DNA of 64,000 nucleotides from a virus. Below the pieces are notes generated by a model. That model was not told where the DNA came from. It did no database searches and was given only the letters and a program-made list of their open reading frames with translations. Positions 3,264-46,451 of this stretch are shown here, in pieces (the stretch's first letter is position 1; each line of letters begins with the position of its first letter). A program made the position numbers and the translations under genes. The DNA is taken from IMG/VR virus record IMGVR_UViG_3300042923_001459, positions 1-64,000 of that record; one strand, given 5' to 3'.

Positions 3264-3348
3264 ATTTCCTCCTCATCATTCATATTAAAATAATAAGTTA
3301 AAGCAAGACTAGAATTAATAGGAAAAAAAAATTTAACATGTAGTTTAC

Positions 3349-30037: not shown

Positions 30038-30313
30038 TTAGCTTATAATGATGTTTCTAGCCCTTAAAATCTGTTTTGCTCTAGCCAACCAAGCATCCCA
30101 ATTAGCCTTGGCATCAGCTTGACTACTAATGTCATCAAAATCTCCACGTTCGATATCTTGTGCCATTTGAGCTTGTAAATCATATCTTGGAACAATTGGT
30201 AATCCATAAATTAGATCTTTTGCTAAAGCAAAACTATTACTAATATAATCTTCTTTATCAGAAACGGTTTTGTTTGGTGTAGTCCCATTCATTTTGTGAA
30301 CATCTTTATTCAT
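30038..30313 (-). CDS. hypothetical protein, paralogue of 30379..30687 (probably its -1 frame extension)
   Basis: FALAKDLIYGLPIVP vs FLLAKQLIAALPISP; no SD; frame open back to the A9 run. Confidence 0.6.
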   Translation of the reverse strand: MNKDVHKMNGTTPNKTVSDKEDYISNSFALAKDLIYGLPIVPRYDLQAQMAQDIERGDFDDISSQADAKANWDAWLARAKQILRARNIIIS

Positions 30314-30378
30314 ATCAAGATAATTGTTTGTATATAAATTATCAGTATATTTATCAGTATAAAGATTGTTTGGTCCTG

Positions 30379-30687
30379 CTAGTCTTTTTTTTTAGCAACT
30401 AAAATACCTTTTGTTTTTAAAAAATCTTGAGCTGCCTTAAGAAGAGCTCCAAAATCAACATTGTCTCCCTCAATTGAACCTAATGCTCCTTCAGCAAGTG
30501 CATCTGCAAGAACATGAGTTACGGAGTTTGATGGAGAAATAGGTAATGCAGCAATTAACTGTTTAGCGAGCAAAAATGCATCAATCTTATCCTCATTTGG
30601 ATTTTGTGATGGGTTTGAAACCATCTTCTCAATTTTAACATTAATATAAGGATCTGAACCATTAGCAATTTTTTTTAATCTACTCAA
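30379..30687 (-). CDS. hypothetical head-region protein
   Basis: Starts MSRLKKIA after AGGAGGAG. Confidence 0.75.
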   Translation of the reverse strand: MSRLKKIANGSDPYINVKIEKMVSNPSQNPNEDKIDAFLLAKQLIAALPISPSNSVTHVLADALAEGALGSIEGDNVDFGALLKAAQDFLKTKGILVAKKKD

Positions 30688-31045
30688 AATTAACTCCTCC
30701 TTGTTTCAGCTTATTGTAAGCTTCGTTTGCAATTTCTTCCACATCGCCATTGACTGGAGTAACACCTAGAATTCTCCATGGAAACGGTAAAGCATAGTTT
30801 AAAGCCATTAAGTAATAGCTATCAAATACGTCAATTGTTTCTTCATGTATCATATTTTTATTATCAACTTTTTCCTCGTTTAAAAGAAACATTTTATGAT
30901 CTAGGATGATATTTAATGTCTCCATAAGTAAGTTATCTTCGGTTGAATAAGCAACATCACCAGTACCGTGACAAGAGCAAATTACTCCAACTGGTTTATT
31001 TTCTCTGATATCGCATATGATAGCTAAATTACCTTTTCTATCCAT
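30680..31045 (-). CDS. hypothetical protein
   Basis: ORF coupled to neighbours. Confidence 0.7.
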   Translation of the reverse strand: MDRKGNLAIICDIRENKPVGVICSCHGTGDVAYSTEDNLLMETLNIILDHKMFLLNEEKVDNKNMIHEETIDVFDSYYLMALNYALPFPWRILGVTPVNGDVEEIANEAYNKLKQGGVNFE

Positions 31046-40822: not shown

Positions 40823-41194
40823 CTATCTTAGATATCCATTAATTTCATTTTTAGCTTCTTCAAGTGTAGTATAGAAACCTCTATACTCTACATTTTCCCA
40901 TTCGCCTTGTTGATAACCTTCAACAACATGATCAGCACTTAAAACAACATATGCTTCATTTGTTTGATTTCTCTCTTGCTCAACAAATACTTTCCAAACC
41001 TCAAATACCTCTACGATATTTTTTGGAAGTCTAAAACCTTTTGGTATTTCTTGATTGGGATTCTCAGCTTGATTATTATCCTGTTTTTTAACTGTCTCAA
41101 CAGGCACTGGAGGAACCTCTAAATTTCTAGTCATCAATGCTGCTACATTATGAGATGCAACTGAGAGTGCATCTAAAACTAAATTTAAAGGCAA
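40823..41194 (-). CDS. hypothetical domain; probable -1 frameshift extension of 41215..42339
   Basis: TTG start without SD; frame open back to A_AAA_AAG. Confidence 0.6.
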   Translation of the reverse strand: MPLNLVLDALSVASHNVAALMTRNLEVPPVPVETVKKQDNNQAENPNQEIPKGFRLPKNIVEVFEVWKVFVEQERNQTNEAYVVLSADHVVEGYQQGEWENVEYRGFYTTLEEAKNEINGYLR

Positions 41195-41227
41195 ATTCTC
41201 AATTGCATTAGCAGTTACTTTTTTTTT
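41155..41227 (-). other. putative programmed -1 ribosomal frameshift signal
   Basis: In-frame A_AAA_AAG then TAA; 9 nt later ATGCAATTGAGA pairs with TCTCAGTTGCAT (11 Watson-Crick + 1 GU). Confidence 0.65.
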
Positions 41228-42339
41228 AAGCGATTTGTTACTGCATTTGCTTTATAAACGTTGAATGGTCCAGTTTCATATGAACTTGGAGAAACTCCAC
41301 CGGAACTAGGAGAATCGGATCTCATTTGAGTTGTAGAATCATATCCGCCCATTCCACCGTCATTTGGCTTACCAACTGGATCTTGATTACCACTATCCAT
41401 CTTTTCCATTTGATCTAAAGCTTCATCAGAAAGTTGAATGTCTTTGAACTCTTCAAATCCAATAGTAGGTTTATCCAAAGTAACATCAATTAGAGCTGAA
41501 GCATAATCATCTGGGAAAATTTGTTTGAAGTAATCTAACATACCCATGGCTTCTGCTTTTTTAACAATTATGTTAGATTTTTCTAATTCCGTTACTTCAT
41601 CAAACATTGCTTTAGCAACCTTAGAAGTGGGAAAGATTTTATTGAGTTCAGCTAAGCGCGAAATGATAGAACCTTTAGATAACTTAGAAATTTTTGTAAA
41701 TACCTTGATTTTCGAAGCATATCTAGGAGTTTCATCAGTTAGCGTTGGAGTTACTTCATATCCCCAACCTTTAAGAATTTCTGCAATTTGTTTTTTCATT
41801 TCATTTGTGGTTTTATTCATTGTAAAACCATCATAGAAGTTTTGAATCGGACCGTCTACTTGACTCCATAAAGTTAAAATCTCTTTTGCAAGATTCTCTG
41901 GTGTGTAAGTGATGTCTTGAACTTCTTTAGTGGCAACTCTTTCTGGTCTTCTACCAACAATCAACATTAAACCTTCCTTAATTGGTTGTTTTGCTAAATC
42001 ACTATTTAGTTCAGCGATTTTACTAGCTTGGTTTTCATGACCAAAATACTTTTTAGCGATACTTGCTAAAGTTTCGCCTTTTGTTGTTTGATGCAAAACA
42101 TTTCTATCAGCAAAATATCTCATAGTATACGGCTCCATTTCATACCCCTTATTGTAATCATTAATTGAAGGATCGGTGAGAGACGGGATGGACGGGTCAA
42201 TTAGACCGTGGTCATTTTTGACTCCGCCATCATCTTGCCAGTTGAGGTCTGACGTTCCATACTCATTGTTCTCTTCTACATTTAGAGTATAATCTAGGGG
42301 TTTAGATTTATTATTATTGAATTTTTTAATCCTACTCAC
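41215..42339 (-). CDS. LysM-domain protein
   Basis: HQTTKGETLASIAKKYFG...IAELN...IKEGLMLIV. Confidence 0.75.
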   Translation of the reverse strand: MSRIKKFNNNKSKPLDYTLNVEENNEYGTSDLNWQDDGGVKNDHGLIDPSIPSLTDPSINDYNKGYEMEPYTMRYFADRNVLHQTTKGETLASIAKKYFGHENQASKIAELNSDLAKQPIKEGLMLIVGRRPERVATKEVQDITYTPENLAKEILTLWSQVDGPIQNFYDGFTMNKTTNEMKKQIAEILKGWGYEVTPTLTDETPRYASKIKVFTKISKLSKGSIISRLAELNKIFPTSKVAKAMFDEVTELEKSNIIVKKAEAMGMLDYFKQIFPDDYASALIDVTLDKPTIGFEEFKDIQLSDEALDQMEKMDSGNQDPVGKPNDGGMGGYDSTTQMRSDSPSSGGVSPSSYETGPFNVYKANAVTNRLKKK

Positions 42340-46177: not shown

Positions 46178-46451
46178 TTCCAGCCCCCTCCTTTATAATA
46201 TGCATTTTTAATTTTTTTTTAAATACCTCACTAACAAAGTGGAATATTTGATCTTTGTTAACGTATTAGAATCTTCTTACTTGAATGATTATCAACGCAA
46301 CATTCTAAGAATAATCAACTGACTAAATATAATAACCAAAGTATGTATTTTTTTTAAATAATTTTTTTTCTAATAGCCAAGTCTGGGTTGCATTTTAGAG
46401 ACGCTAACAAAACAAAAAGGTGAGATAAATTCTCACCTTTCATTTTACAAA

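Follow-up and report, generated by a model that had tools for sequence, protein, structure and literature searches.

The window analysed here, a 64,000-nt stretch of viral DNA (positions 1 to 64,000 of IMG/VR virus record IMGVR_UViG_3300042923_001459), carries on its minus strand an open reading frame (ORF) for a LysM protein, ORF-A. It ends ...AAT CGC TTA AAA AAA AAG TAA and is overlapped at this run of nine A residues (A9) by an open -1 frame, ORF-B. Is ORF-B a gene in its own right or is it read as an extension of ORF-A, and if the latter, which machine changes the frame? The open stretch of the -1 frame begins immediately before the A9 run, reads across it as KKKVTANAIENLPLNLVLDALS... and continues for 131 codons past the last Lys codon to a stop at 40825-40823, giving a predicted fusion of 374 + 131 = 505 aa. 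A preliminary description of the window had placed an in-frame A_AAA_AAG at 41224-41218 and proposed a -1 shift from it into ORF 40823..41194, described as lacking a Shine–Dalgarno (SD) sequence. Both points were borne out. The A9 run occupies 41227-41219 with G at 41218, -1 reading enters that ORF as KKKVTANAIENLPLNL..., and the TTG at 41194, the sole early start in this frame, is essentially without SD: its duplex energy is -1.5 kcal/mol, compared with values between -7.4 and -10.7 kcal/mol at three neighbouring gene starts and -4.2 kcal/mol at a fourth. The features at this junction are as follows.

41215..42339, minus strand: ORF-A, 374-aa LysM protein, homologue of phage G gp5 (from ORF translation and homology)
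41219..41227, minus strand: putative A9 slip site, followed by G at 41218 and the TAA stop codon at 41217-41215
40823..41218, minus strand: transframe (-1) coding region of 131 codons plus stop, covering the gp6 homologue and the unannotated upstream part of gp6; predicted alpha+beta roll
41140..41214, minus strand: lineage-specific RNA hairpin in which a 12-bp stem encloses an imperfect one and is extended outward by a further 6 bp

Recoding to the predicted 505-aa isoform is very likely, based on the conservation of the A run and the -1 frame, the lack of a start for ORF-B, selection on ORF-B, the position of the predicted fold boundary and the existence of fused relatives. The long isoform of about 505 aa that had been proposed to arise by a -1 frame change at an A-rich site is thus supported by strong comparative sequence evidence.

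Conservation of the A run and the -1 frame

The window belongs to a phage G-like megaphage, and its source contig is a 108.6-kb virus fragment with an estimated completeness of 22%. Megablast against the phage collection gave no match, and phage G was found only by protein-level and distant searches. ORF-A is 58% identical to gp5 of Bacillus phage G and ORF-B 66% identical to gp6 (GenBank accession number JN638751). The gene order is also that of phage G, namely terminase (gp1), an M16-type peptidase (gp2), a sigma-like protein (gp3), gp4, gp5, gp6 and the 925-aa gp7. The LysM gene sits between the terminase and portal genes, a location that suggests a morphogenesis or virion protein.

The gp5/gp6 junction in phage G is identical (CGC TTA AAA AAA AAG TAA), and from the run onward its -1 frame reads KKKVTADSIEDIPVYLVLDALS... 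The GenBank record annotates gp6 of this orthologous pair separately and without recoding, starting it at an internal ATG 62 codons past the junction (L001 5281-5487; 68 aa). A database search returned 27 homologues of ORF-A, 23 of which end in KKK. The homologue P0016 (393 aa) has five 0-frame codons past KKK (…LLKKKRQPVG).

Twelve distinct loci with DNA, the window and phage G among them, were recovered from IMG/VR and JGI metagenome scans. In all 12, the frame of the B homologue is -1 to that of the A homologue, and A9 or A10 lies within the overlap; conservation in relatives had been named in the preliminary description as a check. A-protein identities in this set lie between 80% and about 30%. 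The first A of the run is at codon position 3 or position 1, depending on the locus, and the 0-frame stop lies 0 to 5 codons past it. Sorted by the run and the base that follows it, the loci are:

A9 then G: window, L006, L007, phage G, L008, L013 and L014 (n=7)
A10 then T: L009 and L017 (n=2)
A9 then C: L011, L015 and L016 (n=3)

A simple explanation for the split would be an assembly or sequencing error in the homopolymer, the true genome having A10 and a single 505-aa gene. Errors in homopolymer length are common, and one database relative (P0013) is fused at exactly the junction point. However, the same -1 split is found in 12 independently assembled lineages, one of them the cultured phage G, whether the run is A9 or A10. 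The source assembly of the window reads A9, and a 256-nt contig of low depth from an independent soil metagenome reproduces A9 with no gaps when the contigs are compared. Such an error is therefore extremely improbable.

Selection on ORF-B and the lack of a start

Among five relatives, in which synonymous divergence (dS) is saturated (dS > 1), the ratio of non-synonymous to synonymous divergence (dN/dS) in B is 0.10-0.42, the first 40 post-junction codons included. ORF-B is under purifying selection from the junction on. No conserved B start or SD was found among the relatives. In L013 there is no ATG, GTG or TTG within the first 75 B-frame codons; the only one in L006 and L007 is a TTG at codon 40 and the only one in L017 an ATG at codon 22, in each case without SD. 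ORF-B is very likely expressed only as an extension of ORF-A.

Relatives with an in-frame fusion

When the full library was searched with B, it was found at the C-terminus of longer proteins that have A-homologue N-terminal parts. The 488-aa P0013, one of the 27 ORF-A homologues, reads straight through as ...RVKKKVVADELETIPL..., equal to the predicted transframe product. P0060 and P0061 are in-frame fusions with RLKKKITAD and KLKKKIIQAD, respectively, P0059 is an A-B fusion with no Lys run (…YEVTSCRRVVADVMDNIPL…), and P0029 and P0040 are A-B fusions too. Scans of viral contigs with P0059, P0029 and P0061 found no locus, and the B-domain sequences, once aligned, were too diverse for a pattern-based scan. 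In six IMG/VR contigs (L020-L025), the in-frame A-B fusion still carries A9 followed by C (AGT AAA AAA AAA CTA), and a 70-residue Asp/Glu-rich linker is inserted past the run. The other two frames both stop within 1-6 codons. One of these contigs (379 kb) is flagged in IMG/VR as a provirus and as 100% complete. In a further protein, P0048 (204 aa), the B domain is represented by its C-terminal half alone, preceded by an acidic N-terminus and a segment that is hydrophobic and transmembrane-like.

The peptide motif RLKKK[VI]TA[DN] encloses the putative slip site and is kept in the in-frame fusions. The N-terminus of ORF-A (42339) reads MSRIKK, and LSRLKKIA is found near the N-terminus of the gp17-like ORF at the second junction described below.

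On a quick maximum-likelihood tree of the A domain (IQ-TREE) there are at least three changes between the split and fused states, and the fused P0013 nests within a split clade. This alternation, together with the general hypermutability of homopolymers, is what would be expected of variation or decay at the DNA level, with A9 as a mutational hot spot and the split as a frameshift mutation, either phase variation or a pseudogene in the making; only A10 genomes would then make the long protein. Yet the split persists in 12 lineages through saturated synonymous divergence, with B under purifying selection, and two independent assemblies of the window phage both have A9. A structural-module protein needed in every infection could not depend on rare DNA variants. 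We consider this explanation improbable.

Predicted domains and the fold boundary

The naturally fused P0013 was modelled with AlphaFold from an alignment whose rows were A and B homologues. In the model, a predicted disordered N-terminus precedes a LysM domain (residues about 68-125), which is followed by a helical domain (137-309), a disordered stretch that includes the KKK (311-362) and a confident C-terminal domain (368-487). ORF-A is laid out accordingly, with a disordered N-terminus, LysM, a helical domain and finally a Gly/Pro-rich tail, also disordered, with RLKKK at its end. The Pfam score of the ORF-A LysM (19.3 bits, E 0.0011) is just below the 20.9 cut-off, and PF01476 is precomputed for eight ORF-A homologues. 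The predicted LysM region has a predicted local distance difference test score (pLDDT) near 90, and Foldseek matched it to the LysM structures 7pvc, 3zqd, 5bum and 4uz2 with probability 0.99-1.00 and a root-mean-square deviation of about 2 Å. The presence of a LysM domain in ORF-A is supported by the near-threshold Pfam match, the assignment in homologues and the predicted fold taken together. When the full-length fused model was compared with the PDB using Foldseek, only the LysM domain was recognised, and there was no informative match for the helical domain.

Modelled alone, B has a pLDDT of 86 and a predicted template modelling score of 0.78. Its first predicted helix (residues 12-29) lies upstream of every candidate internal start. 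The predicted B fold begins about 10 residues past the slip site, which would fall within a disordered linker, and the annotated start of phage G gp6 would halve it. The model resembles a cystatin/NTF2-type alpha+beta roll at Z about 6, the level of common arrangements: the best matches in VIA-align (4r80, 2lyx, cystatins and NTF2-like proteins) have Z 6.2-5.8, within the range of such arrangements. Among BFVD structures B matched only phage G gp6, and neither ORF-B nor the neighbouring 925-aa and 271-aa proteins had a match in PHROGs or Pfam.

The fold boundary bears on a further possibility, that there are two separate genes and ORF-B is translated from an internal start or by termination-reinitiation. 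A separate gp6 is annotated by gene callers and in the phage G record, and the window has, besides the TTG at 41194, a GTG that lies 48 codons into the -1 frame and has a moderate SD. However, the start position is not conserved, all candidate starts lie downstream of the points at which conservation and the predicted fold set in, and relatives have the two parts fused in frame. Termination-reinitiation and internal initiation were rejected for the lack of a conserved start, and two separate genes are very improbable.

A second A9/-1 junction

The window contains a second junction of the same kind.

30385..30393, minus strand: second putative A9 slip site, joining ORF 30705..30379 (gp17 homologue) to the -1 ORF 30391..30038 (gp18 homologue)

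The upstream ORF has 108 codons and ends ...VAKKKD before its stop, and the -1 ORF reads KKRLAGPNNLYTDKYTDNLYTNNYLDMNKD... In phage G, where this region lies at L019 379-1043, gp17 ends TTA AAA AAA AAC TAA (A9C). The -1 frame there reads KKKLRLAANQNNFYGDKYVDSLSSDNYLD..., which is conserved upstream of the ATG at which gp18 is annotated (L019 798-1043), and conserved gp18 coding starts at the A9 run, about 33 codons upstream of that ATG. The annotations of both gp6 and gp18 in phage G look truncated, because conserved coding, and for gp6 also the predicted fold, begins at the A9 runs upstream.

In L027, a single ORF of about 226 aa encodes both parts in frame, without an A run. The gp17- and gp18-homologue halves are mutually paralogous (FLLAKQLIAALPI and FALAKDLIYGLPI). 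This device would thus serve at two places in the terminase-portal-protease module, whose portal and head protease in phage G are gp14 and gp19, respectively (PMC12484599).

RNA structure around the run

The hairpin downstream of the run in the window is built on a 12-bp stem in which ATGCAATTGAGA (41208-41197) is fully complementary to TCTCAGTTGCAT (41166-41155), with one G-U pair. The stem begins 9 nt past the G of the heptamer, and an outer 6-bp extension pairs 41214-41209 with 41145-41140. The fold has an energy of -28 kcal/mol with z-scores of -4.5 and -4.3, and none of 200 shuffled sequences equalled it (ViennaRNA). Downstream z-scores elsewhere were +0.29 in phage G, +0.07 in L017, -0.37 in L008 and -0.41 in L014, with L008, L014 and L011 spanning -0.37 to -0.44. 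Values below -2 were found only in the window, L009 and L016, where the stems start 0-4 nt past the run.

No consensus 3' structure was found among the relatives by RNAalifold (-0.85 kcal/mol). When the pairs of the window hairpin were counted over the alignment, 61% of cells were paired compared with 32-48% in slid controls, a weak signal and an inflated one as the structure was derived from one of the aligned sequences. The 3' stem that the preliminary description had reported (41208-41197/41166-41155) is therefore real in the window but absent as a conserved feature.

Upstream, none of the loci had an SD-like motif within 45 nt of the run, and folds in this region had z-scores without significance. 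A hairpin in the nascent RNA upstream of the run was considered as a stimulator of slippage and rejected: in phage G a 7-bp stem abuts the run, the window and others have none, and the z-scores are not significant. Rfam gave no meaningful match around the junction, only two chance matches (E 2.6 and 7).

RNA polymerase slippage or ribosomal frameshifting

The reading that we favour is as follows. Standard decoding of the LysM gene would stop just past the A9 run and yield the 374-aa protein. The host RNA polymerase (RNAP) would slip on the 9-nt A/T run, which matches its RNA:DNA hybrid in length, and add one extra A to some transcripts, and these, translated normally, would yield the 505-aa protein in a fraction of expression events. 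The longer form would gain a C-terminal alpha+beta domain, attached through a disordered linker. Ribosomal -1 slippage may contribute in those lineages that have A_AAA_AAG, and the local hairpin may boost it in the window phage. A short and a long isoform, made outside the tail-chaperone context as had been suggested, would both be expected. The sequences show the conserved layout, the dependence of ORF-B on ORF-A and the fused relatives; the step at which the frame changes, RNA or ribosome, and the isoform ratio are inferences. That RNAP slippage is the cause has in our estimate about an even chance; it is favoured over dnaX-type ribosomal frameshifting, and some contribution from both is quite possible. 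The protein produced would be identical by either route.

Polymerase slippage is favoured because what has been conserved is 9-10 A's in a row, independent of codon phase and of the next base. Such a run is a hallmark of RNAP slippage. At least nine A's are found in each of the 12 split loci, and likewise at the second site and in the L020 lineage, which is in frame. Bacterial RNAP slips efficiently in vivo at nine A's or T's, the hybrid is 9-10 bp and insertions predominate (PMC5009743). This insertion bias fits, since 12 of 12 splits at the first site and 2 of 2 at the second need +1 A.

Selection against runs appears at 9 nt in many bacteria (PMC1088944). In the 108.6-kb contig there are four A/T runs of 9 or more compared with about 20 expected (first-order Markov), a depletion of about 5-fold, and none of 10 or more, and a single KKK triplet of 19 is all-AAA compared with about seven expected (72.5% AAA usage; ORFs of at least 100 aa), both expectations resting on simple models. 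The codon pair AAA-AAG (31 occurrences) is rarer in the contig than AAG-AAA (67). As to the polymerase, phage G is reported to encode sigma factors, and the passages of PMC12484599 searched make no mention of a phage RNA polymerase. From this, the host RNAP probably transcribes these genes.

Several observations weigh against polymerase slippage, most of them favouring -1 ribosomal frameshifting of the dnaX/insertion sequence (IS) type, in which tRNA-Lys would slip on A_AAA_AAG or A_AAA_AAA, helped by the stop codon and the hairpin, and the mRNA would be unaltered. A valid -1 heptamer of the form X_XXY_YYZ is in frame at every split locus. The optimal AAG is present in 7 of the 12 loci, and in the close clade it is immediately followed by the stop. 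The window has its strong hairpin at a workable spacing of 9 nt, and the weak partial pairing across the relatives points the same way. An adjacent stop and a spaced hairpin are classic stimulators of ribosomal frameshifting. In-frame A_AAA_AAG is also about 3-fold depleted genome-wide, with five occurrences against about 17 expected on a simple model of codon-pair and third-base frequencies, which suggests that it is slippery for the host ribosomes. Conservation of the KKK may in part be at the protein level, as RLKKK is kept in in-frame fusions, and the extra-A transcripts and the 505-aa product are predicted rather than observed.

On the other side, the hairpin is not conserved and no SD-like element is present upstream of the run. 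Five lineages have only A_AAA_AAA or A_AAA_AAC, which are much less shift-prone in E. coli than A_AAA_AAG (PMC5009743). Ribosomal frameshifting also gives no reason for the run never being shorter than nine, nor for the A9 in the in-frame lineage. The earlier assignment of A_AAA_AAG plus a 3' stem to the dnaX/IS-type signal was not upheld: the stem is specific to the window phage, AAG is missing in 5 of the 12 loci and what is invariant is the 9-10 A's. We regard dnaX/IS-type frameshifting as a real possibility, though a less probable one than slippage by RNAP.

Comparison with known systems

The closest precedents for polymerase slippage are bacterial (PMC1088944, PMC5009743). In dnaX of Thermus thermophilus, RNAP adds A's at an A9 run in the coding sequence, and a short and a long product with a common N-terminus are made. 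The L020 lineage matches this layout, with the long form as the default and nearby stops in both other frames. In the window, in contrast, the default is the short form and slippage, which is inferred, would lead to the long one, as in mxiE/spa13, and the gene belongs to a phage structural module. In mxiE/spa13 of Shigella flexneri, a non-templated base at a homopolymer joins overlapping ORFs, and the longer, functional protein needs slippage. That is a different organism and gene family, whereas here conservation spans a deep phage clade and one module has two sites.

The likeness to the -1 frameshifting of E. coli dnaX and of IS3/IS911 lies in the 0-frame A_AAA_AAG and the 3' stem-loop of the window. 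The differences are that here there is no SD-like stimulator, the stem is unconserved, several relatives lack AAG and the 9-10-nt run is conserved. Phage morphogenesis genes whose two products share the N-terminus and differ by an optional C-terminal domain include gene 10 of T7/T3, genes of the Listeria phages A118, A500 and PSA, and lambda G/GT (PMC5009743). Those extensions are ribosomal and use their own shift sites, with no LysM protein and no A9 run, and the gene in the window is not at the tail-chaperone position.

In the multi-omics study of phage G (PMC12484599), no mention was found of recoding at gp5/gp6 or gp17/gp18, the tail-chaperone frameshift being the only one named, nor any text on gp5/gp6 or ps587/588. 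Searches of the literature on slippage in phages likewise yielded nothing on gp5/gp6 or gp17/gp18. The class of mechanism is known; what is new is a deeply conserved member in a new context, with repeated switching between split and in-frame states.

These loci add a deeply conserved recoding event, and very likely two, to what is known of the one megaphage in culture and of its uncultured relatives. They also correct the annotation of gp5/gp6 and gp17/gp18 in phage G, where the internal ATGs would truncate a folded domain. Phage G on Lysinibacillus offers a natural test bed for polymerase and ribosomal slippage at the same A-rich site. If polymerase slippage is the cause, this would be a clear case of a double-stranded DNA phage using the infidelity of the host RNAP to set an isoform ratio, and the way in which slip sites evolve would be visible in the repeated changes between the split and the in-frame state.

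It is conceivable, though unlikely, that A9 slippage by the host RNAP is a general dosing device for head-module proteins, with at least two sites per genome. One-A insertions or deletions would then flip a gene between the split and in-frame states and invert the ratio while keeping both products, and the RLKK-type linker might be a capsid-targeting or maturation-cleavage signal that yields a cleavable, sub-stoichiometric cargo. A role in cleavage for the motif at the slip site is speculation.

Gene callers working on metagenomic phage contigs could flag an ORF that ends in a run of A9 or longer while its -1 frame is open. The remaining two 9-runs, at 3323-3331 (plus strand) and 46212-46220 (T9 on the plus strand), lie in apparently non-coding stretches, one of them just upstream of the SD-like AAAGGAGGGGG.

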